Source: Pseudomonadota bacterium (GTDB lineage: Bacteria > Bdellovibrionota > Bdellovibrionia > Bdellovibrionales > JACTMU01). From it: a stretch of 64,000 nt of DNA. The position numbers and the translations under genes are program-made. Positions within the stretch are counted from its first letter, which is position 1. Every line of letters starts with the position of its first letter. The notes beneath the pieces were generated by a model. It was not told the DNA's origin and searched no databases. It saw only the letters and a list, made by a program, of their open reading frames with translations. The DNA is taken from positions 95,333-159,332 of the forward strand of contig JACTMU010000012.1 in the NCBI GenBank assembly GCA_014584465.1. Reading direction: 5' to 3'. This document shows positions 4,143 to 64,000 of this stretch, in pieces.

Positions 4143-4230
4143 AGGAGCCTCCTCGAGTTCATTCCAGTAGACATTTCACGGATGATTCTATATCTAACAT
4201 GAAACCCTTTGAACAGGAACAGGATCTAGG

Positions 4231-6038: not shown

Positions 6039-6040
6039 TG

Positions 6041-7173: not shown

Positions 7174-7194
7174 TCAAAAAATACCATAAAGAAA

Positions 7195-7268
7195 TGGGCC
7201 CACCAGGACTTGAACCTGGGACCCACAGATTATGAGTCTGTTGCTCTAACCAACTGAGCTATAGGCCC
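7195..7268 (-). tRNA. tRNA with CAU anticodon (Met, or Ile2 read via lysidine); CCA not encoded
   Basis: Minus-strand sequence: GGGCCTATAGCTCAGTTGGTTAGAGCAACAGACTCATAATCTGTGGGTCCCAGGTTCAAGTCCTGGTGGGCCCA. The acceptor stem GGGCCTA/TGGGCCC has 7 bp including one G-U pair. It also has D-arm GCTC..GAGC, anticodon loop CTCATAA and T-arm CCAGGTTCAAGTCCTGG. Confidence 0.9.
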
Positions 7269-7406
7269 CCAAACGTCCACACAGACTACTCGATTCTTCT
7301 TGAATTGGCAATGAATCCGAGTTCCTCAGAGGGAGTCTCCAGTAGTGCAACTCCGCGTCGTTGATCTGTCCGCGGAACTCTTTGAGGGCATCGATCTGGA
7401 TAGGAA

Positions 7407-9774: not shown

Positions 9775-9916
9775 GTTGTATTGACTAACGAAGAAATCGC
9801 TTCACGTCCAGCTTGATCCTTGACTTCCCCTCCCAATTTTCAATATGGTAGGCCGATTCACCAACAAGAAGGTAGGATTTGCGGGACGGCAAAGGGGTTA
9901 CGGGGTTGATTTTGGC

Positions 9917-10858
9917 ATGCGTATGAAGAATATCAAGATCTACAGCTTGGGTGACTTTCCTGCTTATTTGCCTAAACTCAACCTCTTGTACGATGATCTT
10001 TTTAGTGGAGGTAAGGGGCTACGTTCTCGTCTGGTTGCTTTGGTGGGAGACGCTCTCGATTTGAAGGAGAGCACAGTGATGCTCCTCTGCCAAACTATTG
10101 AATTCATTCACAATGCTTCACTGCTTCATGATGACTTAATTGATCGCTCCCCTCTTCGCAGAAATAGGACGACGGCATGGCTCAAATACACACCAGAGTA
10201 TGCAGTCCTTGCTGGGGATTACCTGTTGGCGCGAGTCATGGTCAATTTGGCGGCCTTTGGAAATCTGGAGTTGATTCAGCTTACAAGTCAGATGATCTCT
10301 GATCTTCTGGAGGGTGAGTGGATCCAAGACTCCTTGGTTCGTGATTGGGAGATCACACTTGAGGATTTGGATCGAGTTCACAATCTAAAGACGGGCTCTC
10401 TTTTTAAATGGTGTCTTCTGGCACCTTTTGTTGCCGTCGGAAGCGTCGATTCTGAAGTCAAGCGATCACTTGAAAATGCTGGGACCATTCTGGGACAACT
10501 CTTCCAACGAGGAGATGATCTTCTCGACTTTGATGTTCGTAATAGTGAAAAGAAGATGGTTTTGGGTGACCTAAAAGCAGGATACCTCAACTCTTTTGGA
10601 GTGTTTTTATCAGGTAGACTTTCTGGCGTACAGAAACAAGAATTTCTAAAGAGTCAGTCCATGAGTGATGTGTTTTCATCACTTGGCGAGTCATACTTTC
10701 AGGATCGTCTTTGTGAATTTGACAGGATGAACACAAGAATGATTGCACTCTATGGCCATCATGTGATGACCCTGAAAGGTCATCTGTGCGAAAGTGGGAT
10801 GTCTTTGATTGAGAATCTCTTAGAACTTCCCCAGAACCTTTATTGGAGAAAAAGATAG
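9917..10858 (+). CDS. polyprenyl diphosphate synthase
   Basis: First aspartate-rich motif 'LLHDDLIDRS' and second 'RGDDLLDF'. I chose ATG 9917 (MRMKNIK...) over the ORF-track start at 9845. Confidence 0.85.
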   Translation: MRMKNIKIYSLGDFPAYLPKLNLLYDDLFSGGKGLRSRLVALVGDALDLKESTVMLLCQTIEFIHNASLLHDDLIDRSPLRRNRTTAWLKYTPEYAVLAGDYLLARVMVNLAAFGNLELIQLTSQMISDLLEGEWIQDSLVRDWEITLEDLDRVHNLKTGSLFKWCLLAPFVAVGSVDSEVKRSLENAGTILGQLFQRGDDLLDFDVRNSEKKMVLGDLKAGYLNSFGVFLSGRLSGVQKQEFLKSQSMSDVFSSLGESYFQDRLCEFDRMNTRMIALYGHHVMTLKGHLCESGMSLIENLLELPQNLYWRKR

Positions 10859-29077: not shown

Positions 29078-29176
29078 TAGGGGCAGTCCGGTAATTCCAT
29101 TTTTGCCGATTTCTATAAGTTTTCCTTATACCTTCGTTGAGCCTCCTCGAGTTAGCGCCTCTGGCTAGCCCTTCGT
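29078..29176. mobile_element. MITE-like element, copy C (left half only)
   Basis: It matches copy A 1233..1326 with 1 mismatch and continues through CTTCGT as A does after its second 19-mer (1346..1351), so C carries one 19-mer. The match ends abruptly at 29176. The kinase stop codon (29165..29167) lies inside it. Confidence 0.85.
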
Positions 29177-31105
29177 AATCATTCGGACTTGGAGTTTTTC
29201 AGATTCTTTCTTGATGGCGTCATCTTCGTATTGGCTTGAGACTAATATAGATGAGTGCGAGATGTCCATTTTTTGGATCAGCTCCAAGCCATTTTCTGAT
29301 TGTCCTAATAACTCAAAGTCAACTAAGAAAAGGACATGGTCCTTGGCGTGAGTCTGGCACCAGATTTTGAAATCCGAACCAGAGGTAAAACTCAAAATAG
29401 GTACGCCTTGAATACGGTTTTTCCAAACTTGGTGGATCGATAGATCATCGTCTAATACGACCACAAGACTGTACTTTGACATATCTAACTGTTCTACGAA
29501 CCACGATGGAGAGTCCGCTCTTGGAAGATGAAGGTCAACAATGGTCCCCTGACCGGGTACGCTTTGAATGTTCAGTGTTCCTCCAATGTTCTCGATGGTT
29601 CTTCGCGCATGAAGAACTCCGATCCCAGATCCGCTTTGACTCTCTTTTTTTCCGAAAGATACAGGCATCTCTCCGAGTCTATCTAGAACATCTTTCTGAA
29701 TTCCAACACCGTTGTCTTGAACTCTAATGTGCACTTGATTCTTTGTGCCATTTACACGAACAACAATCTTTCCATGCCTATCTATAATTGCTTCAACCGA
29801 ATTGTTTATGAGATTGGACAGTGCTCGTTTAAATTCAACCTGATCAATCCTAGCAAAGCAACCATAGGATTGATTCAGATCAGAAGATATTTCAATGTCC
29901 ATTCGGTTTCGATATTGGACTCGTTTTTCAGAAATCAGCATGTCCACAAGAACGGGGATGAGTTCTGTTGTGGCAGTTGATTTTACAGATGCCGAAGTTT
30001 CCTTGTCACCTTGTTGAGTCAATTTTGCTTTACTCAAAAGTGTATTTGCTATGTCGTTGATTCGATTAGCTGCATTACGCAGGAGCAATCTTTTTTCTTC
30101 GGGGACCTGGTCAAGAGTATTGACAACCAAGGTAAGTGCAGAAAGTGGTGATCTTATGTCATGGGAAACCTGTCTTGCAGTTTGTTCCAAGAGCAAAACT
30201 TTCTCGGATTTTAGTTTTTGCAAATGAAGTTCGTGAAGATTTCTCTCTAATGTGTCAACGGCATTTTCAAGAATTCTAATTTCATTTTTTTCACCCTCCA
30301 AAGGCGAACTTTGAGCCTTATGCAGCACCTTGTTGGATAGATCCTCAATAGGTTTGACAACGAGATCTTTGAGTCTGTGAATTCCATAAACAACTGAAAG
30401 AGTCGTAACCAAGAAGATGCCGCCCAGCATTCCAAAAAAAGAGATATAACCGTTTTCCGAATCCTTAATGGTAATTTGAATCGAATCCACCTGTTCGTGA
30501 TTTTCAAACGAGCCGACAAAGATTTTGTTCTCAAATTGACTTTCCAAATCAGAAGTGGAAATTGCAACAAAAAGAACACCTACTGTTCTAGCATTAGGGC
30601 CCGACTGCTGTTGATCATCGAGACGCACAATCTTTTTGAGAATGAGAAATCCATTTACAGAGGAATAAGGAGCTCGCTCAGTGTCTCTTAACAAAACTTG
30701 TTCTAGGTCAACTGTGGAAACGTTTCCCAAATTTCCAGTTCGAATCAACTCTTGGTAATCCTTCGATACGAGCATCCAATACGTTTGTAATGATTGTTTC
30801 TGTACAAATTCTGTAATTCTGCCATAGACACGGTTTTCAAGAAATGGACGCATGACATCGGGTGCCAATAAAAAATCCGTGACTTCAGAAGATCGCAAAA
30901 AAAGCTCTGCATCGTTTTCTAAAAAAGTGAGCTGTCTCTGAATATCAGAAACAATTTGTCGGTTTTGAAATTCAACCATATTTTTGCGACGAGTTTCAAC
31001 ATTATAAATTAAATATCCAAAGACCAACGACGCCAAACTGATGGGAAGAATGCCAACAAAAAATTGAATGGATATAAATTCTTGTTTCAAAGTTCGTCTA
31101 TTCAT
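29165..31105 (-). CDS. hybrid sensor histidine kinase (2 TM, HisKA, HATPase, C-terminal receiver cut short)
   Basis: 646 aa. H-box 'QVSHDIRSPLSAL', N-box 'NLINNSVEAI' and G-boxes 'DNGVGI' and 'GSGIGV'. The receiver is 'LVVVLDDD...FLVDFEL...SILVSS...VRMITKG*'. Confidence 0.85.
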   Translation of the reverse strand: MNRRTLKQEFISIQFFVGILPISLASLVFGYLIYNVETRRKNMVEFQNRQIVSDIQRQLTFLENDAELFLRSSEVTDFLLAPDVMRPFLENRVYGRITEFVQKQSLQTYWMLVSKDYQELIRTGNLGNVSTVDLEQVLLRDTERAPYSSVNGFLILKKIVRLDDQQQSGPNARTVGVLFVAISTSDLESQFENKIFVGSFENHEQVDSIQITIKDSENGYISFFGMLGGIFLVTTLSVVYGIHRLKDLVVKPIEDLSNKVLHKAQSSPLEGEKNEIRILENAVDTLERNLHELHLQKLKSEKVLLLEQTARQVSHDIRSPLSALTLVVNTLDQVPEEKRLLLRNAANRINDIANTLLSKAKLTQQGDKETSASVKSTATTELIPVLVDMLISEKRVQYRNRMDIEISSDLNQSYGCFARIDQVEFKRALSNLINNSVEAIIDRHGKIVVRVNGTKNQVHIRVQDNGVGIQKDVLDRLGEMPVSFGKKESQSGSGIGVLHARRTIENIGGTLNIQSVPGQGTIVDLHLPRADSPSWFVEQLDMSKYSLVVVLDDDLSIHQVWKNRIQGVPILSFTSGSDFKIWCQTHAKDHVLFLVDFELLGQSENGLELIQKMDISHSSILVSSQYEDDAIKKESEKLQVRMITKG

Positions 31106-32102
31106 AGCGCAAAGACTGCCACCATTTATTAAGCACCTTAAGCTCTTCGTTGCCAGGTGGACGAATTTCTACTGCAGATGAATCTTGAACACTCTTGAGA
31201 ATTTCCCTGTAAAGCTTGATCACCTTTGGGTGAAGGCCTTTGGTATGGTTCAGATAGGGGGAAAAATATTGTGTTTTTTCCATATTCCATTCAATGCTCT
31301 CACGATCTGTAATGGCCTCTACGATTCGGATGAGACGAGATTTCTTTTGTTTTGTATTGGAAGTGATGCAAACGTAGTCAATTCCTACAACCGGATGATG
31401 TTTTGCAGCAGCAAAAGTCAGCCACGGAACAGATACATTGCCTGATGCCGAGGCTCCTTGCCAACCGTATGTCGCAAAGTTGCCTTTTTTAATGATGTTT
31501 TCGATGCTAGATGCGAAATCCTCTTTTTTTAAAAAATTCCTATTATGTGATAGCAGAGAGACACAGTTCTTAAGTGGGTTCGTCTTTCCACAACTTTTGA
31601 CATTGTCAAGCAATAAACGCGTTGCCACTTCAAGTTGATCATCAATAACACCGATTCGTATTCCATTTTCTTTGAGTTTCACGAGGTGGAATAAGGACGC
31701 CGGTGTTTCTTTTACAAATCTTGAATCGTAACTGTATACGGTAGAAGACCAAAGATACGGTATGCAGTTGTTTTTGACGACGATATCGGTGTGGTAGTTA
31801 TCCACTCGTTTCATTTGTAATTTTCGTAACGAAACATCGTCGATTAGCTTAGATTGAAACAGAACTGGTAATATTGAATTTGAAACCACGATTATATCAA
31901 ACCCATGTGTTTTTATCGCCAACTTACTTAATGCAACTTCGTTAGATCGATATTCTACAACTTGAATCTTCTCGCCTAATTTTTCAAGCTTGAGCAAGAT
32001 TCTCTTATCAAGATAGTCCCACCAATTAAGAACCCTAACAGTTTCGGCAGAAACGCTTGTTTGCCACAAGAACATCAGTAAAATGTAGATTCGCCCGGTC
32101 AT
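31098..32102 (-). CDS. periplasmic solute-binding protein (PotD/PotF-like)
   Basis: 334 aa. The signal peptide is 'IYILLMFLWQTSVSA', and 'VRVLNWWDYL' is typical of polyamine-type SBPs. The gene overlaps the kinase start by 8 nt. Confidence 0.65.
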   Translation of the reverse strand: MTGRIYILLMFLWQTSVSAETVRVLNWWDYLDKRILLKLEKLGEKIQVVEYRSNEVALSKLAIKTHGFDIIVVSNSILPVLFQSKLIDDVSLRKLQMKRVDNYHTDIVVKNNCIPYLWSSTVYSYDSRFVKETPASLFHLVKLKENGIRIGVIDDQLEVATRLLLDNVKSCGKTNPLKNCVSLLSHNRNFLKKEDFASSIENIIKKGNFATYGWQGASASGNVSVPWLTFAAAKHHPVVGIDYVCITSNTKQKKSRLIRIVEAITDRESIEWNMEKTQYFSPYLNHTKGLHPKVIKLYREILKSVQDSSAVEIRPPGNEELKVLNKWWQSLRYE

Positions 32103-43731: not shown

Positions 43732-43950
43732 ATGGCAAAAGATGATTTAGCGCAGATTGACGGCAAGATTGTGGATGTGGGTGCCGGAGGCCTCTACAAA
43801 GTTAAGCTTGATAACGAATTAGAAATTCAAGCTAAGTTGTGTGGAAAGATGCGACGGTTTAATATTCGAGTGGTGGTAGGAGATAAGGTGACCGTTGGGG
43901 TTTCACCCTATGACCCCACCCATGGACTTATTTTGTATCGCCACAAGTAG
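43732..43950 (+). CDS. infA: translation initiation factor IF-1
   Basis: 72 aa. 'MAKDD...GKMRRFNIRVVVGDKVTVGVSPYD...GLILYRHK' is present. Confidence 0.95.
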   Translation: MAKDDLAQIDGKIVDVGAGGLYKVKLDNELEIQAKLCGKMRRFNIRVVVGDKVTVGVSPYDPTHGLILYRHK

Positions 43951-43966
43951 GTGGCTCTCAGGGAGA

Positions 43967-46438
43967 ATGGAAACTACATTTCAAACTTTCTTGACCACGT
44001 TTCTTCCAGGAATTCCTCTTAACTCCGCAGCCGCAGTGATCGAGCTGACCAAGGAGGGGGGCACGGTGCCCTTCATTGCTCGTTATCGCAAAGAGAAGAC
44101 GGGAAATCTTGATGAGGTGCAGATCCGAGAAGTTTTGGATCTGCATGAAACCTTTGAAGAGATTGTAAAACGAAAGCAGTTTCTGATTAAGGAGATTCAT
44201 TCCCAGGGCAACTTGACCGATGAGCTTAAGGCGCGGATTGAGGCCTCCATGAATCTCGAAGAGCTGAATGAGATCTATCGTCCCTTCAAAAGAAAGAAGA
44301 AGACGAAAGCGACCCTTGCTCGTGATGCCGGTTTGGAGCCCCTTTCACAGTGGATTTGGGATCTTGGTCATGGGCTGATTCAAGATTCGACGGCGATGGA
44401 AGTTCGCGCCAAAGAGTACATCAACCCCAAGGCTCAGTTTGTGACCTATGACATGGCCCTCAAGGGGGCTATGGACATCCTTGTGGAAAGGGTGGCAAAC
44501 ACTCCACACCTACGTGAAGAGGTCCGAAAGGAGCTCTTCGAAAATGGAAAGATTCATTCCAAAAAGACTAAGAAATTTAAAGAGCACTCCAAATATGAGA
44601 TGTACGCTGAGCATGAAGAGGGCGTCAGTGGCCTGATGGACAAAAAGGCCAGCCACAGGTACTTGGCTATGCGTCGAGCTTGGCAAGAGGAGGAGGTGAC
44701 TCTCTCCATCCACGGAGACGAAGAGAGGCTTCTGAGAAGTTTTGAACACTTTTCTTGCACTCAACAAAATCAGGCAACCGACTTTTTAAAGCAGTGCGCC
44801 AAACAGGCACTGAATGTTCATGTACTGCCATCCATCTCCACAGAGGTGCACAGCGCTTTGAAAGAGAAGGCCGATGACCATGCCATTACGGTTTTCTCTG
44901 AAAATGTGCGAAGAGTTTTGCTGGGGAGTCCGTTTGGAGCTCGGTGCATTTTGGGGGTCGATCCCGGCTTGCGAACGGGATGTAAGGTTGCCCTTGTAGA
45001 TAAAGCCGGAAGATATGTTTCTCACACCGTCTTTCAAATCAAGGGTGATGATGCTGAGGAAAAGGCAAAGAAGCTCTTTGGAGAGGTCTTTAAGCAGATC
45101 AAGATTGACGCCATTGCCGTGGGTAATGGGACTGCTGGGCGAGAGACAGAGGCCTTTGTTCGTAAGATCGTTAAAGATTTGGGTGAGAGTACACCGGTTG
45201 TAATGGTGAACGAATCCGGTGCAAGTGTCTATTCAGCCTCGGACATAGCAAGGGAGGAGTTTCCCGATTTGGACATAACGGTTCGTGGAGCAATATCCAT
45301 TGCTCGACGTCTTCAAGATCCACTTGCAGAGCTCGTGAAAATCGACCCCAAGAGCATTGGAGTTGGTCAATATCAACACGATGTATCGGCCACACGTCTT
45401 AAGAAGAGTCTTCACGGAGTGGTGGAGTCGTGTGTAAACAATGTGGGGGTTGATCTCAATACGGCTTCAGAGAGTCTTCTAAGCTATGTTTCAGGTATTG
45501 GTGAGGGGTTGGCCAAGAGAATCACAGATCATCGAAAGCAGCATGGGCTCTACAAGGAGCGTGAGGATCTTCTTAAAATACCTCACTTTTCTACAAAGGT
45601 GTTTGAACAATCTGCAGGGTTTCTTCGAATTCTCGGTGGAAGTGTGGTTTTAGATCAGACGGGAGTTCATCCCGAGCGTTATTCAGCTGTTCGTGACATG
45701 GCTCATGAGTTGGGAGTCACGGTGTCTCAGCTTGTGGGCTCAGGTGCTGCATCGTTAAATCAACTTCGTGAGAAGTGGAGCAAGCTCATTGGTCCCTTCA
45801 CTTTTGAGGACATTGTGAAGGAGCTTGAGAGCCCTGGTCGCGATCCGAGAGACCCATTTAAGGCATTTGCATTTAGGGACGACATCTTTGAGGTTAAAGA
45901 TCTTAAGGAGGGCATGATCTGCCCCGGTATAGTGACCAACGTCACAAACTTTGGAGCCTTCGTCGACATCGGTGTTCACCAAGACGGTTTGGTTCATATT
46001 TCAGCATTGGCCCAAAAATTTGTCGATGATCCTCGAAAGGTCGTAAATCCAGGTGATCAAGTGACGGTCAAAGTTCTAGGAGTGGATTTGGACAAAAACC
46101 AGATCTCGCTCTCGATGAATTGGGATAAGCCGGTTGCACAGCGTGAAGCTCGAGAGAGGACTCCTCAAAGTGATCGACCACGTCGTGACGACCGTCCACG
46201 CCGCGAGGACCGACCTCGCAGAGAGGCTGGAGCTGGATCTGGAGCTGATCAAAAGGCTCGAGGTGACCGTCGCCCTCGTGGCGAAGGACAGGTCACCTCG
46301 GATCGACCTCGTAGAGCCAAAGAGAAGCATTCGGCGGCCAAAGGAAAGTCCGATTCTCCTAACAAGCTTCATATACGAAAAGGGAGTCCATTTAACAATC
46401 CCTTTGCGGCGCTGAACAACATCAAGCCTAAACCCTAA
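43967..46438 (+). CDS. tex: Tex-like transcription accessory protein (YqgF/HhH/S1 domains)
   Basis: I start it at ATG 43967 (METTFQTF...). 'TVPFIARYRKE', 'GVDPGLRTGCK' and the S1 domain 'GIVTNVTNFGAFVDIGVHQDGLVHIS' are present. The C-terminal tail is Arg/Asp-rich. Confidence 0.9.
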   Translation: METTFQTFLTTFLPGIPLNSAAAVIELTKEGGTVPFIARYRKEKTGNLDEVQIREVLDLHETFEEIVKRKQFLIKEIHSQGNLTDELKARIEASMNLEELNEIYRPFKRKKKTKATLARDAGLEPLSQWIWDLGHGLIQDSTAMEVRAKEYINPKAQFVTYDMALKGAMDILVERVANTPHLREEVRKELFENGKIHSKKTKKFKEHSKYEMYAEHEEGVSGLMDKKASHRYLAMRRAWQEEEVTLSIHGDEERLLRSFEHFSCTQQNQATDFLKQCAKQALNVHVLPSISTEVHSALKEKADDHAITVFSENVRRVLLGSPFGARCILGVDPGLRTGCKVALVDKAGRYVSHTVFQIKGDDAEEKAKKLFGEVFKQIKIDAIAVGNGTAGRETEAFVRKIVKDLGESTPVVMVNESGASVYSASDIAREEFPDLDITVRGAISIARRLQDPLAELVKIDPKSIGVGQYQHDVSATRLKKSLHGVVESCVNNVGVDLNTASESLLSYVSGIGEGLAKRITDHRKQHGLYKEREDLLKIPHFSTKVFEQSAGFLRILGGSVVLDQTGVHPERYSAVRDMAHELGVTVSQLVGSGAASLNQLREKWSKLIGPFTFEDIVKELESPGRDPRDPFKAFAFRDDIFEVKDLKEGMICPGIVTNVTNFGAFVDIGVHQDGLVHISALAQKFVDDPRKVVNPGDQVTVKVLGVDLDKNQISLSMNWDKPVAQREARERTPQSDRPRRDDRPRREDRPRREAGAGSGADQKARGDRRPRGEGQVTSDRPRRAKEKHSAAKGKSDSPNKLHIRKGSPFNNPFAALNNIKPKP

Positions 46439-54739: not shown

Positions 54740-56278
54740 TTAACCCTTAGAGTACTCCTTGGCAATGATCCCGAACTTCTCCATCTTTCTTAGGAGAGTC
54801 TTTTTGGAGATGTTGGCATGTATGGCCGTTTGGTTGATGCGACCTTTAAAGGTCTTAAGAGCCTTAATGATGAACTCTTTTTCAAAGGCCTCCTTCTGTC
54901 GGTAGTAGTCGAGCTTTCCACCAGGCAGATAAGAGACGTTGGCACCAAGAGCTCCTTCGACCTCGGTGTCACCTTCACCCATCGAGATCTCCTCGTCGTC
55001 AGAATCTGAGAGGTCCATCGAAGCCACTTCATCACTTGCGTCGATGTCGCCGTCATCGGGCTCAATGAGAGTCTTACCTTTTAAGATATGGTGAGAGACG
55101 GAGACACCCGTTGCAGCCAAAAGTTTCTCTGGCATTGAAGCGAGGGTGAGTTTGTTGGAAGTTTCAAGAATGAAAGCATGCTCGATCACATTTTCAAGTT
55201 CTCGAATGTTGCCTGGCCACTCATAGCGTTTAAGAAGAGCTAGGGCATCAGGTGTGATCCCGATGATTTTTTTACTTTGAGAGGTGTTGAACTTCTTAAT
55301 GAAGTTGGCGACCATCTGATCGATGTCATTTTTTCGTTCTGCAAGCGAAGGAAGAAAGATCGGGATGACATTGAGTCGGTAAAAAAGATCTTCTCTAAAG
55401 CTATTTTCTTCGATCATCTTTTCAAGAGGTCGGTTTGTGGCGGCAATGATGCGCACATCGGACTGGATTTCTCGGTTCGCTCCGACAGGAGTAAAGACCT
55501 TCTCCTGCAACACACGAAGAAGTTTTGCTTGAAGTAAGAGAGGAAGATCTCCAACTTCATCCAAAAATAGTGTACCACCTTCAGCAAATTGAAATTTCCC
55601 GATCTTTCGTTGATCCGCTCCTGTAAAAGAGCCCTTTTCGTGACCAAAGAGTTCACTTTCAAAGAGATTTTCTGGAATGGCAGAACAGTTGATGGCAACA
55701 AATTTTCCGCCCTTTCGAGCAGAGTTGAAATGTATGGCTCGCGCGACAAGCTCTTTACCCGTGCCCGAGGCTCCACGAATCAACACAGGTGTGTCGACCT
55801 TTGAGAGACGATTGATGATGTTAAAGACCTTTTGCATTTCTGCGGAGTTGCCAATGATGCGTCTTCCGGCCTCCATGAGAACAGGTGATGAAGCTGCAAG
55901 TTGGGCGATCATGCTCTTGGCACTCACGGCACGGTTGACCATGTCCACGAGAGTGGGGGCCTCAACGGGTTTTGAAATGTAATCGTAAGCACCCTCTTTG
56001 ACAGAGCGTACGGCATCGTCAATGTTGGCGTAGGCGGTGACAATCAAGACTGTGATGCTAGGATCGTGTTGTTTGATCTGTCGAAGGGCCTCAAGACCAT
56101 CAAGGTGAGGCATATCCACATCTAAAATCACAAGGTCATAGTGGCTGCTCCTTGTCTTTTCCACGGCACTGAGACCGTCCACAGCCTCATCGACTTCGAA
56201 GCGTCCGGTCGCCTCTAGGGTTGATCGAACGATGAGTCTTAGACCTTGATCATCATCTGCAACGAGTACACGCAACAT
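54740..56278 (-). CDS. sigma54-dependent response regulator (NtrC family)
   Basis: 512 aa. Receiver 'VLVADDD...LVILDVDMP', AAA+ 'GASGTGKELVARAIH' and 'GSFTGA', an acidic insertion, and a C-terminal HTH. Confidence 0.9.
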   Translation of the reverse strand: MLRVLVADDDQGLRLIVRSTLEATGRFEVDEAVDGLSAVEKTRSSHYDLVILDVDMPHLDGLEALRQIKQHDPSITVLIVTAYANIDDAVRSVKEGAYDYISKPVEAPTLVDMVNRAVSAKSMIAQLAASSPVLMEAGRRIIGNSAEMQKVFNIINRLSKVDTPVLIRGASGTGKELVARAIHFNSARKGGKFVAINCSAIPENLFESELFGHEKGSFTGADQRKIGKFQFAEGGTLFLDEVGDLPLLLQAKLLRVLQEKVFTPVGANREIQSDVRIIAATNRPLEKMIEENSFREDLFYRLNVIPIFLPSLAERKNDIDQMVANFIKKFNTSQSKKIIGITPDALALLKRYEWPGNIRELENVIEHAFILETSNKLTLASMPEKLLAATGVSVSHHILKGKTLIEPDDGDIDASDEVASMDLSDSDDEEISMGEGDTEVEGALGANVSYLPGGKLDYYRQKEAFEKEFIIKALKTFKGRINQTAIHANISKKTLLRKMEKFGIIAKEYSKG

Positions 56279-56368: not shown

Positions 56369-58225
56369 TTACAGCCCTGTTGGCAATTCTACAATGAAGC
56401 TTGATCCCATTTTGACACCACTTTCAACACTTATGGTGCCTTGATGCAGCTCAACGAAATACTTAGCAAGATACAAGCCAAGCCCAGAGCCTTTGATCTT
56501 TGAAGTTTTTACATCCTTGCTTCGGTAGAACTTAAGAAAGATGTTATTGAGTTCATCACGCGGTATGCCGAGGCCGTCATCTTGGACCTCCACAACAACA
56601 AATCCATCTCGTTCATTGGTTGAGACGGTGATGTGGCTCTTTTCAGGGCTGTACTTGATCGCATTTTCAATCAAATTGGAAAAGACCTGTCCCATGAGCT
56701 CCACATCGATGCGGATACTAAAGAGCGGCTCAAAGTTGGTCGCAATGGAGATCTCTTTAGTAGATGCCAAATATTCGAATTTTTTAATGATTTCAGAAAG
56801 CAATGCATTGATATCTTTACTTGTAAGATGAAGTTTGATCTCTTTGCTTTCAACCCTTCCCAAATCCAAAATGGAGCTGATGAATCGGGTCAGCTCCTGC
56901 CCCGACTGGCGTATGGTCATGATTGCATCGCGTTGTCGATCGCTCAGAGTCTTTGGATCTCCGAGAATGATTTCTGTCATCCCCTGAATTCGAGCAAGTG
57001 GGGTCTTAAGGTCATGGGACATCATGCTGATGAAGTTGGTCTTTAGCTCTTCAACTTGAGTGAGAAGTTTGTTCTTTTGAAAATACTCCCAGCTGCGACG
57101 ATTCTCCATAATCAATCGATAGGGGATCAAGAGATAGTAGCAGAGGAAGCTTGCCAGCAGCGGATGGATCATCACCAAAATGACGCCAAACAGTGAAAAA
57201 AGAGCATAAGATAATAGACAAAATGTCACCACCACTAGGGTCAATGTGGCAAGGCCAATGGCGGGCTTGAGAGCCAAGACTGCATAGGTGATGACCAAGA
57301 CCACAAGTGAGGTCAAAACGAAGTTGACCCAATCCGGAGGACTTACCGGCGATGAATCAAGCAAAATCGTATCAAGCATATTGGCATGCATCTCAAGCAG
57401 GCTCATCCCAATGACCTCTCTTGAGTAGGGCGTTTGAATGTAGTCATCAGCATCCGTCTCAGAGTCGATGCCTAAAAAGACAAATCGATCGGTAAAGGTC
57501 CCTTGCGGAAAGTTCCCCTTGATCACATCGAGAAACGACGTTTGCGGATAGGACTTTGCGGGTCGATAATCTATTAAAAGTTGATCGGAATCATTAAAGT
57601 CAAAGACTCCTCTATACTTCTTGCTATCAGCTTCAGGATGGACCAACTGAGCCAATTGAAAGTGAAGGGTCTTTTCGCCGCCCCAATAGGTCAGAACAAC
57701 CCTTCTTGTCACCCCATCATTGGCCAATCGTCCACTGTCTCGAGTCCGTGGTCCCACCACCACACTGAGATGCTCAAGCGGTGGAGGCATAAGAAGCTCC
57801 TTCTCTTGCCCCTTGGCCACAGGATCTTGAGTCTGCACATAAAAGTGCTCAAACGACATCGCGACTCGAGCAAACTCCTCACGATCTTCCCGAACCCCCT
57901 CAAGACGCATCGGTGACACCAAATAGATCACCGCTTTAGGTCGATCCTTATGAATCTGATCCAAGAACTGAACATGATCTCGAAGACTCGGGGTGCGAGC
58001 GAGCTCCTTGATCGTTGGTCGATCAATGGCCACGGTTTGAATCTGCCCAGAGACCTCGTGAGCGGGCCGAGCCCTCACCCGCATATCATAAAGATAGCTT
58101 TCAAAATAGTAGAGCGGAAACTGATTCAAGATCGCGCCCGCCACAATCGCAAACCCAATTCTCAATCCATGAAAAAACCACTTATGTTTGATCACCTTAC
58201 GAATATTCAACGATGCCTCCATCAC
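56369..58225 (-). CDS. CHASE2-domain sensor histidine kinase
   Basis: 618 aa. It has a long extracytoplasmic N-domain, then 3 TM segments, then H-box 'MSHDLKTPLARI' and G-box 'GSGLGLYLAKYFVELHQG'. Confidence 0.8.
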   Translation of the reverse strand: MMEASLNIRKVIKHKWFFHGLRIGFAIVAGAILNQFPLYYFESYLYDMRVRARPAHEVSGQIQTVAIDRPTIKELARTPSLRDHVQFLDQIHKDRPKAVIYLVSPMRLEGVREDREEFARVAMSFEHFYVQTQDPVAKGQEKELLMPPPLEHLSVVVGPRTRDSGRLANDGVTRRVVLTYWGGEKTLHFQLAQLVHPEADSKKYRGVFDFNDSDQLLIDYRPAKSYPQTSFLDVIKGNFPQGTFTDRFVFLGIDSETDADDYIQTPYSREVIGMSLLEMHANMLDTILLDSSPVSPPDWVNFVLTSLVVLVITYAVLALKPAIGLATLTLVVVTFCLLSYALFSLFGVILVMIHPLLASFLCYYLLIPYRLIMENRRSWEYFQKNKLLTQVEELKTNFISMMSHDLKTPLARIQGMTEIILGDPKTLSDRQRDAIMTIRQSGQELTRFISSILDLGRVESKEIKLHLTSKDINALLSEIIKKFEYLASTKEISIATNFEPLFSIRIDVELMGQVFSNLIENAIKYSPEKSHITVSTNERDGFVVVEVQDDGLGIPRDELNNIFLKFYRSKDVKTSKIKGSGLGLYLAKYFVELHQGTISVESGVKMGSSFIVELPTGL

Positions 58226-58383
58226 ACCCCCGCCACCTTACCATAGAGAGTGTGATTTCAGCAATCAGAGAACGCCCTGTAAATTCTACATATTGAGCAT
58301 CGAGTTAACTGCGTATATAAGAGTTCGAATCATCTTTTCTTCGGAAGTCGAAACAGATGACCAAAACGTGTAGAGGGGTAAGT

Positions 58384-59241
58384 ATGAATCGGGATTTCAG
58401 TTTTGGATATTACTTCAACGTACTGGCTCAAATGGTATTCTTCCCAAACCTTAAGATTAAACCCAAGCAAAAGTGGGTCAAAGCAATTGAAGATATAGGG
58501 CAAGTTCATAGGCTTCGTGTTCAACGTGATGGCAAGGTCGTCTCCGCAGTCAAAATATCTCGCACGAGTGAGCCTCAAGGCGTTGTGGTATTGGGGCATC
58601 CCATTTCAAAGAAAGCTAAATTCTTCTTTGGTGAAAAATCGCGAATTTCTTTCTATCTCGAGCGTGGTTTTGACGTTGTTGCATTTGACTTCAATGGCTT
58701 TGGTGAATCAGATCGGATCGATCTTCGATATTGGAAAGATGCCCAGGCCGTAGTACAACACCTTCGACAAGAATACAATAATCATCGATTTGTCCTCCAT
58801 GGTGTAAGTTTTGGGTCGTTTCATGTGCTAAGAGCCTACAAAGATTTGCCGAAAAATTCGGTTGTAGTCTTAGAAAATATGAGTCGATCACTCTATGATT
58901 ATTGGAAACGATGGCTTCATACAAGATTGATCATTAGATTTCTCGAAAAACTACCAATTCAAGCATTCCAGGAGATGGAAGTGATTGAGCAGTTTAAAAC
59001 TTGGGATCGACCGGATATCACCATTATGGCCATTGCGAGCGAAAAGGACATTTATACGCCTGCAGATGAAATGAAGGACGCCATCTCCTACCTAAGACAA
59101 AGGAATCACTTTGTACTTCTACCTAATGCGACTCACTTGCAAGGTCCTTATGAACAGTCGGATCTCTATCGACTGTCACTGAATCGTGCGCTCAACCCAT
59201 CTCAAAACAAAATAATGTTTTATGAGTCCGCGCAACCATAG
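58384..59241 (+). CDS. alpha/beta hydrolase
   Basis: I chose ATG 58384 (AGAGGGG SD upstream). The nucleophile elbow is 'HGVSFGS', with candidate Asp ('SEKDIYTP') and His ('NATHLQG'). Confidence 0.75.
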   Translation: MNRDFSFGYYFNVLAQMVFFPNLKIKPKQKWVKAIEDIGQVHRLRVQRDGKVVSAVKISRTSEPQGVVVLGHPISKKAKFFFGEKSRISFYLERGFDVVAFDFNGFGESDRIDLRYWKDAQAVVQHLRQEYNNHRFVLHGVSFGSFHVLRAYKDLPKNSVVVLENMSRSLYDYWKRWLHTRLIIRFLEKLPIQAFQEMEVIEQFKTWDRPDITIMAIASEKDIYTPADEMKDAISYLRQRNHFVLLPNATHLQGPYEQSDLYRLSLNRALNPSQNKIMFYESAQP

Positions 59242-59293
59242 GTGGAAGTGATTATTGGTACAAGTTTAGGATAGACTTAAAAGGAATCTGAAT

Positions 59294-59401
59294 ATGCTGG
59301 ATGGTCGAGCCAAGAGACAGGAGCTTTGGATTAATAATGCAACCTTCAATAACGGAATTCCATTTGAGGTTGAGACTCATTTTGGTTTCCCAAGAAAATG
59401 A
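59294..59401 (+). CDS. unannotated 35-codon ORF: candidate precursor peptide
   Basis: Own translation: MLDGRAKRQELWINNATFNNGIPFEVETHFGFPRK*. AAGGA sits at 59281..59285 with an 8-nt spacer to the ATG. The TGA overlaps ATG 59398 (ATGA). Coding status is unproven. Confidence 0.3.
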   Translation: MLDGRAKRQELWINNATFNNGIPFEVETHFGFPRK

Positions 59402-59421
59402 TAAATTTGGAGGATATATTA

Positions 59422-59715
59422 ATGGGGGTAAATATGAAGTGGACTTCGATTCTATTGACCGTTCTTTCTCAAGCCGGCTTCTGTCAGTCCGACAGTATAA
59501 ACCAAAAGACATTTGATGCAGATACTGCCAAACAAGTTTTGGTAGCTCTTACCTCGGTGACACCACAGGAAGGAAAGCCCTATCCTTTATTATCTGAGCT
59601 TTTAGCTGGTCGCCTTACGATTGAGACACTTTCGGACAATGAAAAGATAGACCTTGAAGTTGAGATTAGACTGCTTGCAGCCAGCTTAGCCGAAAAACAA
59701 GGTTCAATTATCTAA
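59422..59715 (+). CDS. small protein with signal-peptide-like N-terminus (function unknown)
   Basis: There are three in-frame ATGs (59398, 59422, 59434). ATG 59422 has the best SD (GGAGGA at 59409..59414). The sequence reads MGVNMKWTSILLTVLSQAGFCQSD.... Confidence 0.55.
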   Translation: MGVNMKWTSILLTVLSQAGFCQSDSINQKTFDADTAKQVLVALTSVTPQEGKPYPLLSELLAGRLTIETLSDNEKIDLEVEIRLLAASLAEKQGSII

Positions 59716-59738
59716 ATCACAGTGAGAACCGAGACAAT

Positions 59739-61238
59739 ATGGGCGATGAATCTGAACTCTTTATAGTTTTATCGAATACATGTAATTTCAAATGTTCCCA
59801 TTGCGTCAGCATGTCTGCCCCAATCCCAGAAAATAAGTTTAGTATCTCTTTATCCGAGATAACAGATTTGGTTGAATGGATTAAGAATGAGGCTAGGATT
59901 AAGCGAATTCACTTTTCCGGTGGCGAGCCTACGTTACATCTTGATCTAATTCAGTTGATTCAAGTTCAATTGCCAAATCTGTCGTATGCCATGACCACAA
60001 ATGGTTGGTTCGGGAAGAATCCGGATAAGATCTTAGGAAAAATGAGGCTAGATCTCGTATTTTTTTCATATGATCAATTCCACAAGCCATTCATAGATAC
60101 GGAACCTCTTAGAAATGCAATGGGAGCGACTGTTAGAAAGGGAATCAGAACATTTCTAAAGTTTACTGTAAACTGTGCCGAAGATTTTGCCTTAATTCCG
60201 GAAATAATGGTCCCGGGGGTCAAAATTGTTTCTAACAGCACTGTTCTTGCCGGACGCGCGAGAAAGAAGAATATTGGGATAAGTCGGCCGTCTAAACCCG
60301 AAATGGTGGCACTTGAAGGTTGTCCTTCATTGCGAGAAGACCGAATCGATTCACTGGAGAGAATTGTCTTTCACCCAGGTAAAGGTTTGAGTCCTTGTTG
60401 TGGGCCATTAGTTGATCCATTACTTGGGGATCCTGATCTTTTGTTCACTAAAACTGGTGAAGACTACTTTCGAGGAAACAGAATGCGTAATTTTCTGATG
60501 AGAGGTAATTTTTTGGCGCAGGTTCCTAACCTAAACGTACCTGTTGAGCATTGCAAATCGCAATGTTCAGTATGTGAATATATTTATGGTAGATTCAAAA
60601 CGCCTGGATTGAGATCTGACATTATGAAAGCAATGGAGCCATCTTGTATACCACTAAACACCTATTTGGATTCAGATGATCAAGACCGATTGAAATCCAA
60701 ATTTAGACTTGCATATTTTTTAAGCTCAAGTGCCTCGTCGTTGGCAATCGCAAAGTCAGAGATCGTAGCTGTTGAGGCACACGGGATTAGAACTGAACTC
60801 ATAACTGAAGCAAATCAGTCGAGGGCCTTAGACCTTTTTATCAGAGCTTTCGAACGAAAGTGCCCAAACCGGGCGTCGGCCGAAGAATTGGCAGACATTC
60901 GCACTAAACTAGGAGGCTTCTTAGTAAATTCAGGCAGTTCACTCCTCTACTATTCCAATAACCAAGCTGTTGGTTTATTCGGAATTTGGAGAGGAATGTT
61001 TCACTATTTCTTTCAGAAGAAGGTGAATCATGTTGGCGTCTATGGCTACGATTCTAATTTAGTTAACAAAACTCAAGCTCAAGCAATGAAGCAACATTGG
61101 TATCAGGAAATGATAGGTTTAGTTGATAAAAATAACAAGCTTGATACAACTGTGAGAATTGATACATTTAACCTACCATCCTTAAAACTTGCTCACAAGT
61201 TTGGTTTTATGGTAACTGGATTAGAAATTTCACCATGA
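59739..61238 (+). CDS. radical SAM protein with Cys-rich auxiliary region fused to a GNAT-like C-terminal domain
   Basis: 499 aa. 'SNTCNFKCSHCV' is the CxxxCxxC motif, and 'FSGGEPTL' is the SAM-binding GGE motif. Later Cys motifs are 'EGCPS...GLSPCCGP' and 'CKSQCSVCEY'. The last ~170 aa end in 'NLPSLKLAHKFGFMVTG', which is GNAT-like and tentative. Confidence 0.7.
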   Translation: MGDESELFIVLSNTCNFKCSHCVSMSAPIPENKFSISLSEITDLVEWIKNEARIKRIHFSGGEPTLHLDLIQLIQVQLPNLSYAMTTNGWFGKNPDKILGKMRLDLVFFSYDQFHKPFIDTEPLRNAMGATVRKGIRTFLKFTVNCAEDFALIPEIMVPGVKIVSNSTVLAGRARKKNIGISRPSKPEMVALEGCPSLREDRIDSLERIVFHPGKGLSPCCGPLVDPLLGDPDLLFTKTGEDYFRGNRMRNFLMRGNFLAQVPNLNVPVEHCKSQCSVCEYIYGRFKTPGLRSDIMKAMEPSCIPLNTYLDSDDQDRLKSKFRLAYFLSSSASSLAIAKSEIVAVEAHGIRTELITEANQSRALDLFIRAFERKCPNRASAEELADIRTKLGGFLVNSGSSLLYYSNNQAVGLFGIWRGMFHYFFQKKVNHVGVYGYDSNLVNKTQAQAMKQHWYQEMIGLVDKNNKLDTTVRIDTFNLPSLKLAHKFGFMVTGLEISP

Positions 61239-62701
61239 AAAAAATGAATATAATCAATCAAAAATTGGCTATTGCTCTTGTCTTGAGTGTAAGTATCTGT
61301 GTTAAATGTACTAAGAAAGTCGAAAATAGGACATTTAGAGTTGGGCTTCGGGCAATTCCAGAACGTCTTGATCCGAGAAATAATGACGTAAACATCTTCC
61401 ACTACATTAATAGCAACCTGTATTATCCTTTGTTTGACAAAACCAGCTATGGCAAACTTCAGAGCGATTTCTTAGATATGGACACGACAGAAGCACGAGA
61501 CCAAATTTTTAGTACTTTTAGAATGTGTCTTAAGGAAGGAATTAGTTTTTCTGACGGGACTTCAATAAGAAGCTCACACCTAGAGAATTCGATTAGATTT
61601 GTTCACCAAAAGGACATGGAATTGCCGGTCTTGGAATCTTTGAGAGCAGAAGGGTTTTGTGTAGACGTCAAGTTACAACGAGGTGAGCCGAAATATTTTG
61701 ATAAGCTTTCAACGTTGGAATCTACTTTGCTTAAGGAGGAGCCATCATTTGAAAATCCAGCACCAATAGGTCTTGGTCCATTTCATATCATTGTTATGAA
61801 TAATGAAAAGATTATCTTGAAAAGATCTTCTGCTCAGTCGACTAAGCGAGGCATAGATGTTTTAGAATTCCTTAAAATTGCTACCCCAGAAGACGGTGAA
61901 CGTTTGCAAATTCATGACTGGAACAATCTCTGGCCACACCTTGGGGCAAACGCACCCTTGCCATCGTACATCATAAATGATTGGCGGCGATTTGAACAAA
62001 GTTTAGTGCGTAGCTTAATGATAGTGACTCACATCAAAAATGCGAATTTGAGTAAGAAACTCGCGTATTGTTTTGATCGCCTGACCTATAAAAAGCGACT
62101 TGGTATGGATCTTACGAATATTCCGGGCTTTTTACCAAAGGGGCTCACTGGTTCACGCGTTTCGTTTGAGGAAATAAAGGGCACTTGGGGATTCACTAAA
62201 GAGGACTGTCGAGCGGCTTCAAAAAATACGAAAATCGTGCCATTTATCTTGTTCTATCCAACACTTGAGGCTCATTTAAGACTATTTCTAGAAGACGTCC
62301 AAGATTCATTGCCCATACGGATAGGAGTATCTACAGTATCGGTCAACGAGGCGATAGCTAAACTGTATAGTGGAGAAGAGCTACTTATTGCCACCCTCGC
62401 TGATACGATCAAAGGGCGAGCAGCTGGGTTTTTCGTACCTTTTTTAGGCGATAAGAGGGTTATAATTCAAAATTTAATTGGACTTGATGCGCTATTGAGA
62501 AAGGGTGCCACATCTAATGACGTGGACGAGTCTGAAAAATATTTTGAAATTGTCCATAGAAAGCTTCTCGAAACAGGAGCAATAATACCTCTAGGACAAG
62601 TGCATTCGACATTCTACTATCCAAAATTTGTCAAAGCAATTCCAGCCGTTGATCTTGCAAATGGATTTCCGAGAATTGATCAAATTGAGGTGGCAGAGTG
62701 A
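61235..62701 (+). CDS. periplasmic solute-binding protein, family 5 (OppA/DppA/NikA-like)
   Basis: 488 aa with an N-terminal signal/lipobox-like 'LVLSVSICVKC'. 'FRVGLRAIPERLDPR' is typical of the family-5 SBP N-terminus. The ATG overlaps the rSAM TGA (ATGA). Confidence 0.65.
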   Translation: MKKMNIINQKLAIALVLSVSICVKCTKKVENRTFRVGLRAIPERLDPRNNDVNIFHYINSNLYYPLFDKTSYGKLQSDFLDMDTTEARDQIFSTFRMCLKEGISFSDGTSIRSSHLENSIRFVHQKDMELPVLESLRAEGFCVDVKLQRGEPKYFDKLSTLESTLLKEEPSFENPAPIGLGPFHIIVMNNEKIILKRSSAQSTKRGIDVLEFLKIATPEDGERLQIHDWNNLWPHLGANAPLPSYIINDWRRFEQSLVRSLMIVTHIKNANLSKKLAYCFDRLTYKKRLGMDLTNIPGFLPKGLTGSRVSFEEIKGTWGFTKEDCRAASKNTKIVPFILFYPTLEAHLRLFLEDVQDSLPIRIGVSTVSVNEAIAKLYSGEELLIATLADTIKGRAAGFFVPFLGDKRVIIQNLIGLDALLRKGATSNDVDESEKYFEIVHRKLLETGAIIPLGQVHSTFYYPKFVKAIPAVDLANGFPRIDQIEVAE

Positions 62702-64000
62702 ATCGGATATTCCTGTTTCTTTTTTTGGGAGGTGCTATCGCGACGCCGTCAGCCATGATAGCAGAGAACTTCGAGCAGGATCGCTTAGTCAAGCGATCTC
62801 TTGAAGTTTGGGAACAGGAACTCGCATCTTCTATCGTTTCAGAACAAATGTTTATGGTGGATCGAATTGTAAATAGCCTTAAAACGGAGGTCATCGAGCG
62901 AATCAGTATTACAAAAGATGATAAGAATTTTTTTTCGATACCGTCAATGGCTGAAATCGGAACTTGCAAATTTAGTTCAGGGAAGGATATCTATCGTTAT
63001 AATCGAAGGGTTGCCCGTCTAGAATATTGTAAGTCCGTAAGAAATCTTTTTGTTCTTGCCATCGAGTCGACCTTCTTTTGGTTCTTACTTTCAGGATTTA
63101 TTGCATTGAGTTTGGTTGTTCAGATCCTATCTCTTAGGGGATATCGTTCATCGTTGTTGAACGTACTTGATTATTTGAGAAATTGGGCGGAGTCAGATTT
63201 GTCAAGAAAGCAGCTTGAAACAGAACTTTTGGGACAGAAAGACGATCCTTTGGCCCAACAGTTGATAGGTTTAGTGAGCGAAGGCACTGCGGTACGACTG
63301 GAGTTATTGAAGGTGAAAGGTGACCTGGAAAAGAATGAACTTATGGCCATAGTTGCAAGTCAAGTGGCCCATGACATTCGTTCACCATTATCAGCTCTAG
63401 ATATGGTATTGAAAGATCTAGGCAACATGCCTGAAGATAAAAGAATCTTAGTTCGTACTGCCACACAGAGAATTAAAGACATAGCAAACAATTTAATTGA
63501 AAAGAATAGATCAAGAAAGTTGGGACTTTGTACAATCGATGGATCAAATTTGAACCAAGTACCCACTGTCCACTTGATTTCAAATGTACTTGACTCGATC
63601 GTGTCTGAAAAACGAACTCAGTTTAGAAATAGACCAAGTGTAGAGATTGACCTTTTAGTAGACGAACAGAGCTACGGTCTGTTTGCCATTGTGAATTTAT
63701 GTGAGCTAAAACGAATCATTTCAAACCTCATAAATAACTCGGTGGAGGCCTTAGGCGATAGTGGGTTTGTGCGAGTGCAAATCATTTCTCCAGATAGTAG
63801 ATGTTTGAAGATTCAGGTGAGAGATAACGGCAAAGGCGTGCCATCGCATATACTCGCGCAATTTGGTGAGCGCGGCGTGAGCCATAAGAAAGCCGATACT
63901 GAGTCAGGTAGTGGGCTTGGTATTCCTCACGCAAAGTCTACTATAGAAGGATGGGGTGGTAAATTTGAGGCTGAGAGTACAGTTGGCAAGGGGACAACGG
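62698..64000 (+). CDS. sensor histidine kinase, partial (3' end beyond the window)
   Basis: Own translation from GTG 62698, which overlaps the SBP TGA. It has two hydrophobic segments, H-box 'QVAHDIRSPLSAL', N-box 'NLINNSVEAL' and G-boxes 'DNGKGVP' and 'GSGLGIPHAK'. It is absent from the ORF track because it is open-ended. Confidence 0.8.
   Translation, partial: MNRIFLFLFLGGAIATPSAMIAENFEQDRLVKRSLEVWEQELASSIVSEQMFMVDRIVNSLKTEVIERISITKDDKNFFSIPSMAEIGTCKFSSGKDIYRYNRRVARLEYCKSVRNLFVLAIESTFFWFLLSGFIALSLVVQILSLRGYRSSLLNVLDYLRNWAESDLSRKQLETELLGQKDDPLAQQLIGLVSEGTAVRLELLKVKGDLEKNELMAIVASQVAHDIRSPLSALDMVLKDLGNMPEDKRILVRTATQRIKDIANNLIEKNRSRKLGLCTIDGSNLNQVPTVHLISNVLDSIVSEKRTQFRNRPSVEIDLLVDEQSYGLFAIVNLCELKRIISNLINNSVEALGDSGFVRVQIISPDSRCLKIQVRDNGKGVPSHILAQFGERGVSHKKADTESGSGLGIPHAKSTIEGWGGKFEAESTVGKGTT

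Follow-up and report, generated by a model that had tools for sequence, protein, structure and literature searches.

A conserved four-gene cassette in Bdellovibrionota and Elusimicrobiota joins an EpeE-like radical SAM enzyme with a GNAT-fold part to an orphan binding protein and a membrane histidine kinase

The window analysed here, a 64,000-nucleotide stretch of contig JACTMU010000012.1 (assembly GCA_014584465.1, positions 95,333 to 159,332 of the forward strand) from a bacterium of the Bdellovibrionales, ends in four plus-strand genes for which comparison with related loci firmly supports a conserved functional unit. The unit comprises a small exported protein of 97 residues (59422..59715), a 499-residue enzyme in which an EpeE-like radical SAM domain is fused to a GNAT-fold part (59739-61238), an orphan family-5 binding protein of 488 residues (61235..62701) and a membrane histidine kinase (62698..64000) of which 434 codons lie before the window end. 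Together these genes suggest a self-contained module in which a small ribosomal protein is modified, exported and then read by the binding protein docked on the kinase. This reading is tentative and we judge its chances to fall just short of even. The individual parts are of known kinds, and it is their combination and their host range that appear to be new.

The preliminary description of this stretch, made from its letters alone, had placed the enzyme, binding protein and kinase on a single transcript. Direct reading of the sequence confirms the two junctions it had named, which are an ATGA at 61235, where the start of the binding-protein gene overlaps the enzyme stop, and a GTGA at 62698, where the GTG start of the kinase gene overlaps the binding-protein stop. 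No terminator-like site was found on the plus strand between the cassette genes, and the layout of the sequence suggests that the cassette is co-transcribed. The tight coupling of the three genes is borne out by comparison. A word-index search returned only four full-length relatives of the enzyme, and an exhaustive profile search returned 114 proteins at an expectation value (E) <1e-30. Approximately 55-60 of the 114 are full-length fusions of 470-530 residues, many others consist of the radical SAM half only (~290 residues) and some of the tail only (~200-260 residues). The fusion family spans at least ~55 clusters at 50% identity, plus split forms, and is without a curated family name. Locus DNA was read for part of the 114 members, and hidden Markov models (HMMs) of the four components were run on all of those loci. 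Thirteen distinct loci besides that of the window, among them L009 with its split enzyme, show the proposed succession of enzyme, binding-protein and kinase genes. The loci with a fused enzyme are L001/L002, L003, L004, L005/L006, L008, L024, L025, L104, L105/L106, L107, L109 and L110. Gene order is shared across loci at 25-45% protein identity, and overlaps of 1-4 bases or gaps of a few bases recur at most junctions.

In this local HMM census every locus with the fusion and downstream DNA has a cassette-type binding protein, and a kinase follows wherever the DNA extends past the binding-protein gene, with the cassette-type sensor domain in all except L009. There (2350-7335) the split enzyme genes are followed by a family-5 binding protein and then by a kinase with a different sensor domain. 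Neither the cassette-type binding protein nor the kinase was present in ~90 loci with other radical SAM families. Taxon labels for four loci read Pseudobdellovibrionaceae (L007), Bacteriovoracaceae (L008) and Elusimicrobia/Elusimicrobiales (L110 and L009), and the cassette is found in metagenome-assembled genomes (MAGs) of two phyla, Bdellovibrionota and Elusimicrobiota. That the genes are neighbours by chance, or are the decaying cargo of an island and share no function, is scarcely credible given that all four recur with intact reading frames and in an unchanged order in 13 further distinct loci, which span two phyla and reach down to 25% identity, even though the window copy has a lower G+C content (GC) and may be horizontally acquired, the binding-protein gene of L110 is split and one family member is without the radical SAM cysteines.

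The radical SAM half of the fusion (residues 1 to ~295; 59739..60623) is, by its sequence, a clear homologue of the peptide epimerase EpeE/YydG. Its radical SAM identity, recognised in the preliminary description, is confirmed by Pfam (Radical_SAM, E 9.7e-12). A profile of five family members compared with all sequences in the PDB matches EpeE/YydG at E 1.6e-25 over query residues 9-286, which spans the entire radical SAM and auxiliary-cluster region, and Foldseek comparison of this half with the PDB recovers EpeE structures (8ai1 and related entries) at 20-22% identity over 176-180 columns. The best NCBIfam match is also to the YydG epimerase (TIGR04078), at 51.3 bits against an equivalog cut-off of 300 bits, and the enzyme is thus a homologue and not an equivalog member of YydG.

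In EpeE the hydrogen-atom donor is Cys223, and an extended twitch domain (T-SPASM) houses the single auxiliary [4Fe-4S] cluster (PMC13012085). The equivalent features can be traced in the fusion enzyme. The CX3CX2C motif is formed by C15, C19 and C22 and is kept in 47 of 48 family representatives. The extra cysteine clusters first noticed by eye prove to be real and conserved, as C195 (CPS), C220 (PCC) and C276/C279 (CxxC) are kept in all 48 representatives and align to the EpeE region. These four residues constitute one predicted auxiliary [4Fe-4S] cluster set. C221 of the PCCGP stretch is a candidate hydrogen-atom donor. EpeE C223 aligns to it, the C223A mutant chain in the PDB fixing Cys223 as the second cysteine of PCC, and the column holds Cys in 45 and Ser in 3 of the 48 representatives. 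From the mutant chains in the same profile output, EpeE D210 aligns to E207, which is invariant in five close relatives.

The enzyme falls in none of the housekeeping or cofactor families against which it was compared. MoaA, NrdG, QueE and NirJ match its first ~115 residues only, at 25-50 bits against cut-offs of 130-650, and were rejected. A known defence system was likewise rejected, PADLOC giving only generic viperin-like matches to the first ~115 residues, and a PHROGs scan returned generic matches only. No recognition element domain of the kind found with RiPPs (peptides that are ribosomally synthesised and then modified after translation) was detected in the enzyme with Pfam or NCBIfam. 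Two further family members merit comment. Representative P0091 lacks CX3CX2C (its N-terminus reads LGLNYNFIFNDGLNDS) while the remainder is kept, and it may be an inactive paralogue. The public call of the L005 enzyme (P0005, 459 residues, Leu start) is truncated, and the radical SAM motif CNFSCSHC lies in its open frame further upstream (9653-10001).

Structure prediction, and structure prediction only, points to a GNAT fold for residues ~296-499 of the fusion (60624..61238), with a core at ~350-499. The AlphaFold2 model of the 499-residue protein has a mean predicted local distance difference test score (pLDDT) of 65.7, rising to 85-94 over residues 300-499, where the strands and helices follow the GNAT order (beta1-alpha1-alpha2-beta2-4-alpha3-beta5-alpha4-beta6). 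Foldseek matches the tail to GNAT and tandem-GNAT structures with a probability of 1.00 and E down to 6.8e-9. By sequence, the Pfam GNAT model gives no match to the window protein even at E 10, Acetyltransf_1 is weak in three of seven relatives (best E 0.0023), and comparison of the domain with PDB sequences gives nothing meaningful. The GNAT-like tail proposed from the letters alone accordingly holds as a confidently predicted fold with weak matches in relatives, but not as a Pfam domain of the window protein. The stretch corresponding to the acetyl-CoA loop reads HVGVYGYDSNLV (HIGYWGYDRN in relatives) and is without the Q/RxxGxG/A motif after beta4. The end of the fusion carries FNxxSxxLAxxxGF, typical of the last GNAT helix (alpha4). 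In the Elusimicrobiales MAG locus L009 the radical SAM part (304 residues) and the GNAT-like part (235 residues) are encoded by separate adjoining genes within the same cassette, and the retention of both in this split form suggests that the two parts are working partners.

The 97-residue protein is the fourth conserved member of the cassette and its likely substrate or precursor. Its gene most likely starts at 59422, with GGAGGA 7 nucleotides upstream of the ATG, and the product opens with a Sec-type signal peptide (MGVNMKWTSILLTVLSQAGFCQS) made up of a basic N-terminus, a run of hydrophobic residues and a site of the signal-peptidase type. The mature part of ~70 residues is acidic and helical and ends in the tail ...EKQGSII. 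In all 10 fusion loci with upstream DNA, the enzyme gene is directly preceded by a small open reading frame (ORF) that encodes an N-terminal hydrophobic segment, and L009 has a 65-residue ORF of the same kind ~100 bases upstream. The position is precursor-like. The N-terminal region is a Sec signal and not a classical leader.

Similarity detectable by BLAST is significant solely to L001/L002 (E 5e-12), and a profile-profile comparison of two clades (hhalign) gives E 1.4e-4 with a probability of 53%. The small proteins of the loci nonetheless share a plan, having a signal peptide, often with an A-N-A cleavage site, and a helical, acidic region whose core reads L(S/T)xxEQxxL, and their net charge across the last 60 residues is -1 to -5. 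The tail, ~9 residues after the core, has a small residue or Pro that is followed by a hydrophobic residue and next by Ala or another hydrophobic one (GSII, GSII, GGII, APLA, APIA, HPWA, KPYA, TNFV, KPLL, QPLF and DPIFP). The known target residues of EpeE are Val and Ile (PMC13012085). Given that these are hydrophobic and that the tails end in hydrophobic residues, the C-terminal tail would be a reasonable candidate for the site of epimerisation.

The assignment of the third gene product to the family-5 binding proteins stands by its predicted fold and through relatives that pass the Pfam threshold, the window protein itself falling below it (SBP_bac_5, 13.3 bits against a cut-off of 32.4). 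Among the relatives scanned only the L003 homologue passes, at 35 bits, and recorded precomputed PF00496 matches exist for the homologues in L104, L109 and L110. The AlphaFold2 model has a mean pLDDT of 81.9 and a predicted template modelling score (pTM) of 0.73, and Foldseek matches it to NikA, OppA, DppE, MppA and PrgZ at E ~1e-24 with template modelling (TM) scores of 0.63-0.75. At the N-terminus of the 488-residue protein is a signal or anchor helix. Only three relatives came up in a word-index search, each within the same cassette type. No ABC permease or ATPase genes were found beside the binding-protein gene in any locus with flanking DNA, and a binding protein without a permease fits a receptor role like that of LuxP with LuxQ. 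In L110 (10520-11873) the binding-protein gene appears as two ORFs (252 and 169 residues), which could reflect a frameshift, an assembly error or a pseudogene.

The kinase consists of a first transmembrane helix, a ~100-residue periplasmic domain with two invariant cysteines, a second transmembrane helix, a coiled coil, an H-box (VAHDIRSPL) and an ATPase domain. Its naming as a histidine kinase in the preliminary description is well founded for the ATPase domain, where the HATPase_c match to the window kinase is significant (Pfam, E 3.2e-16), and less so for HisKA, which matches weakly. The family alignment shows an invariant H within VAHDIRSPL together with NNxxE/A, DxGxG and GxGxG, and the N, G1 and G2 boxes and the sensor domain are conserved. 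Full-length relatives are 537-744 residues long, and most carry a diverged receiver-like domain at the C-terminus, the profile of which finds receiver domains in the PDB at E 0.0015; the L109 kinase (447 residues) is without it.

A sigma-54 response regulator gene lies directly upstream of the cassette on the same strand in four lineages (L004, L005/L006, L024 and L110), and in L005 only 22 bases separate it from the small-protein gene. The L004 and L005 regulators are 62% identical and belong to two distinct loci of related lineages. The only sigma-54-dependent response regulator of the window (54740..56278, minus strand) is located 2.1 kilobases upstream, outside the low-GC stretch, and may possibly be the output partner of the kinase. 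It is 31-35% identical to the regulators of L005, L024 and L110, which are 30-35% identical to one another. Such similarity is common across the NtrC family and so proves no link, and orthology of the window regulator with the cassette-linked regulators was rejected as a claim because these values are uninformative. The genes upstream of the cassette in L001 are not orthologous to the CHASE2 kinase and regulator of the window.

Two sets of genes bear on how this kinase lineage may be wired. Between the regulator and small-protein genes of L024 (7089-7319) and L110 (7802-8092 and 8095-8328) lie small ORFs of 76-96 residues with H-box-like FHDIRGD and THDVRSKC stretches. The L110 pair is paralogous at 49% identity, and none was seen in the window. 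From their sequences, these may be phosphotransfer proteins that relay from the kinase receiver-like domain. A second sensor pair is present on the minus strand of the window in a low-GC patch, where the gene for a 334-residue signal-peptide protein (31098-32102), which looks PotD-type by inspection and is without a Pfam match, overlaps by 8 bases the gene for a 646-residue kinase (29165-31105). Over the dimerisation, phosphotransfer and ATPase core (DHp-ATPase) this second kinase shares 44% identity with that of the cassette, and it has the same receiver-like tail (PxWF...VVLDDD). The overlap of a paralogous kinase gene with a binding-protein-like gene hints that this kinase lineage habitually works with binding proteins.

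Our data are consistent with a molecular model for how the four products might act in sequence. The 97-residue protein would be made with its Sec signal peptide and modified in the cytoplasm by the fusion enzyme before export. The EpeE-like half would abstract a C-alpha hydrogen at one or more positions and Cys221 would return hydrogen to the opposite face, converting L- to D-residues, most plausibly at hydrophobic residues of the conserved C-terminal tail, while the GNAT-fold half would either add an acyl group or hold the substrate. The modified protein would then be exported and cleaved by signal peptidase. The protein or a C-terminal fragment of it would be bound by the membrane-anchored, transporter-less OppA-type protein, docked on the periplasmic domain of the kinase. 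Ligand binding would alter kinase activity, and phosphate would pass via the receiver-like domain of the kinase to a response regulator, a sigma-54 activator in several lineages. We infer that the small protein is the substrate, that the chemistry is epimerisation, that the product is the ligand and that the binding protein signals to the kinase. The autoinducer-type circuit first suggested for this stretch therefore survives in part. Its enzyme, binding protein and kinase do form one conserved unit, and the permease-free receptor fits the LuxP/LuxQ comparison, but the product is likely ribosomal and not a small molecule. Because the enzyme is homologous to a peptide epimerase, the compound concerned is most likely a modified ribosomal protein or peptide rather than a small-molecule autoinducer. 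A fuller version, in which a Sec-exported D-amino-acid protein, perhaps acylated, is a self-made extracellular signal read by an orphan OppA-type receptor that drives a hybrid kinase, with a sigma-54 activator as a further output in several lineages, and in which this is the first epipeptide-type chemistry outside the Bacillota, is possible but doubtful.

Several points weigh against this model. EpeE D210 is replaced by Glu, and the column is variable in distant members (Glu in 24 and Asp in 5 of the 48 representatives, within a poorly aligned stretch). The pLDDT of the AlphaFold2 model falls below 50 at residues 165-284, in the auxiliary-cluster region. The GNAT domain is without the usual acetyl-CoA loop and has almost no sequence match. 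The small proteins are barely alignable between clades, and 65-75 mature residues is long for a peptide signal. A Sec substrate would also need to be modified before export, which is not known for this enzyme class. On the output side, the sigma-54 regulator of the window is paired with another kinase, the CHASE2 kinase (56369-58225, minus strand), with which it is co-oriented, and a weighted GG-N10-GC scan ahead of the small gene found no convincing sigma-54 promoter in the window and a weak site in L001.

The modified small protein could instead be an exported weapon or envelope-active factor, with the sensor reading prey-derived or cell-wall peptides, or damage caused by the product, and controlling production or protection. 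We regard this main alternative as unlikely. The sole characterised relative, the epipeptide EPE of Bacillus, acts on membranes as a toxin and sets off a stress response of the two-component type (PMC7026026, PMC13012085). The best structural matches of the binding protein include MppA, which binds a murein tripeptide, and in a host lineage such as Bdellovibrionota the sensing of prey peptides would make sense. The frequent position of cassettes beside mobile or defence genes also favours an effector. However, the mature small proteins are acidic (-1 to -5), helical and 65-75 residues long, which sets them apart from a cationic membrane peptide. The cassette has no conserved gene for an immunity transporter or protease, and the strict 1:1 linkage and translational coupling are more easily explained if the product is the ligand.

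It is also conceivable, though improbable, that the enzyme acts elsewhere, on a small molecule, on an acyl-CoA-derived compound as in Elp3-type chemistry or on the binding protein or kinase, and that the small protein assists the sensor in the periplasm. Such an arrangement would fit the otherwise unexplained GNAT domain, a fold that usually binds acyl-CoA and for which Elp3 sets a precedent of cooperation with radical SAM. The weak conservation of the small proteins agrees with it, and their signal peptide implies that they work outside the cytoplasm. Against this, the alignment of the radical SAM half with a peptide epimerase runs its full length and includes the donor cysteine, the 50 Foldseek matches listed do not include Elp3 and no Radical_SAM_C domain was detected, and the small ORF is the only conserved peptide-like gene, placed directly before the enzyme gene like RiPP precursors. 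Elp3 itself is a radical SAM and GNAT fusion that modifies tRNA, its halves cooperating on an acetyl-CoA-derived radical. The fusion enzyme has the same two domains in the same order in an entirely different context, shows no detectable kinship with Elp3 outside the shared superfamilies, and has an EpeE-like half with an auxiliary cluster; an Elp3-type identity was rejected for the same two reasons.

The modification of a small secreted protein by an EpeE-like enzyme, as we favour it, can be set beside several known systems. With epeXEPAB (yydFGHIJ) of Bacillus subtilis the cassette shares a radical SAM enzyme with a single auxiliary-cluster region and PCC donor cysteine, as well as a small ORF directly upstream of the enzyme gene. 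The differences are considerable. The enzyme here has a fused GNAT-fold domain and scores 51 against 300 bits, neither an EpeP protease nor an EpeAB transporter is found in the window or in related loci, and the mature part of the small protein, which follows a Sec signal peptide, is long and acidic. The cassette also includes a binding protein and a kinase, and the hosts are Bdellovibrionota and Elusimicrobiota, not Bacillota. EpeE-type epimerisation has one characterised example, and epipeptides have been described as restricted to Bacillota (PMC13012085).

Binding-protein-dependent kinases are represented by CBP-ChiS, in which the binding protein is of family 5, and by LuxP-LuxQ, TorT-TorS and AioX-AioS (reviewed in PMC8050422). 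The cassette shares with these pairs a binding-protein gene that adjoins a membrane kinase gene without a transporter of its own in the locus, and with CBP-ChiS also a binding protein of family 5. AioXSR likewise ends in a sigma-54 regulator. The known pairs respond to a small molecule that is environmental or diffusible and originates elsewhere, whereas translational coupling ties the receptor genes here to those for a peptide-modifying enzyme and its likely substrate. The sensor of the cassette kinase is also a short, family-specific domain of ~100 residues with two invariant cysteines, unlike LuxQ/ChiS-type pairs.

The nisin NisK/NisR and subtilin SpaK/SpaR systems export a modified ribosomal peptide that is sensed by a kinase of the same cluster and induces its own synthesis. 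The cassette would share this logic of modifying, exporting and sensing. In the Gram-positive hosts of nisin and subtilin, however, the kinase senses the peptide directly, export depends on an ABC transporter with a leader protease and the chemistry is that of lanthionines, whereas the cassette is proposed to sense through an OppA-type receptor and to export through Sec. The fold of the binding protein is shared with PrgZ and with OppA proteins that bind Phr peptides, and 4faj (PrgZ) and 8are (Bacillus OppA with a PhrE-derived peptide) are among its Foldseek matches. The ligands of these proteins are short ribosomal peptides, which are passed to a permease and sensed inside the cell; the cassette has no permease, and a kinase gene follows the binding-protein gene. 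The combination, which the preliminary description did not recognise as a described system, was likewise without a description in full-text searches of a limited literature collection, and neither the fusion nor the small protein nor the cassette has a specific model in NCBIfam, Pfam, PADLOC or PHROGs.

The AT-rich island in which the genes were first placed is real but modest. GC is 40.7% in 58226-64000 and 46.0% in the remaining window, where 2-kilobase windows have a mean of 0.460 and a standard deviation of 0.022, a fall of ~2-3 standard deviations. Third-codon-position GC is 0.36-0.40 in the five plus-strand genes and 0.49-0.52 in the two genes immediately upstream. An equally low patch occurs at 30001-32000 (GC 0.388). 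The low GC of the window copy fits the neighbours of other cassettes, which often include mobile or defence-type genes. Conjugative transfer genes (TrwB/TraG, TrbI and relaxase-like) occupy 1-7800 of L005/L006, and a Mu-type transposase, a group II intron reverse transcriptase and BrnT/BrnA lie within 1-3600 of L110. Two long ORFs of L024 (12220-16831) look TIR-domain-like and Lon-like by eye. Three unrelated loci carry, next to the cassette, AAA_14/DUF4143 ATPase genes or a piece of such a gene (L001 10044-15205, L105 7390-7920 and L109 6183-8714).

Six same-strand ORFs had been reported after the CHASE2 kinase and every one is present in the ORF list. As a six-gene cassette the proposal is too wide, with four of the genes conserved as a unit and the first two excluded from it because neither has a counterpart in related loci, where the genes upstream of the cassette vary. 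The first, an alpha/beta hydrolase of 285 residues (58384..59241, plus strand; Pfam Abhydrolase_1 E 8e-9) whose start agrees with that of a recorded protein, has a homologue in 0 related loci. The second, an open frame of 35 codons (59294..59401, plus strand), has no similar frame in any related locus and no family match in Pfam or NCBIfam, and is probably not a gene. A search for a structured RNA or riboswitch in or ahead of the cassette gave nothing exceeding noise, and the sole RNA gene of the window is a tRNA-Met at 7195-7268. Elsewhere in the window, a Tex-family protein (43895-46438) has named best matches that are all from Bdellovibrionota/Bdellovibrionaceae MAGs, at 64-69% identity, which places the window in an uncultured representative of this phylum.

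If the proposed chemistry is correct, EpeE-type epimerisation would reach Gram-negative lineages and would do so in a new architecture in which a GNAT domain is fused to the enzyme or encoded beside it. Should the product also be the ligand, the cassette would represent a new loop design that combines general Sec export with a transporter-less OppA-type receptor on a kinase, and a ribosomal-peptide circuit for cell-cell or self-sensing would exist in predatory Bdellovibrionota and in Elusimicrobiota. To our knowledge, cell-cell signalling in Bdellovibrionota is little characterised, and the cassette offers a concrete and testable system of four genes for its study.

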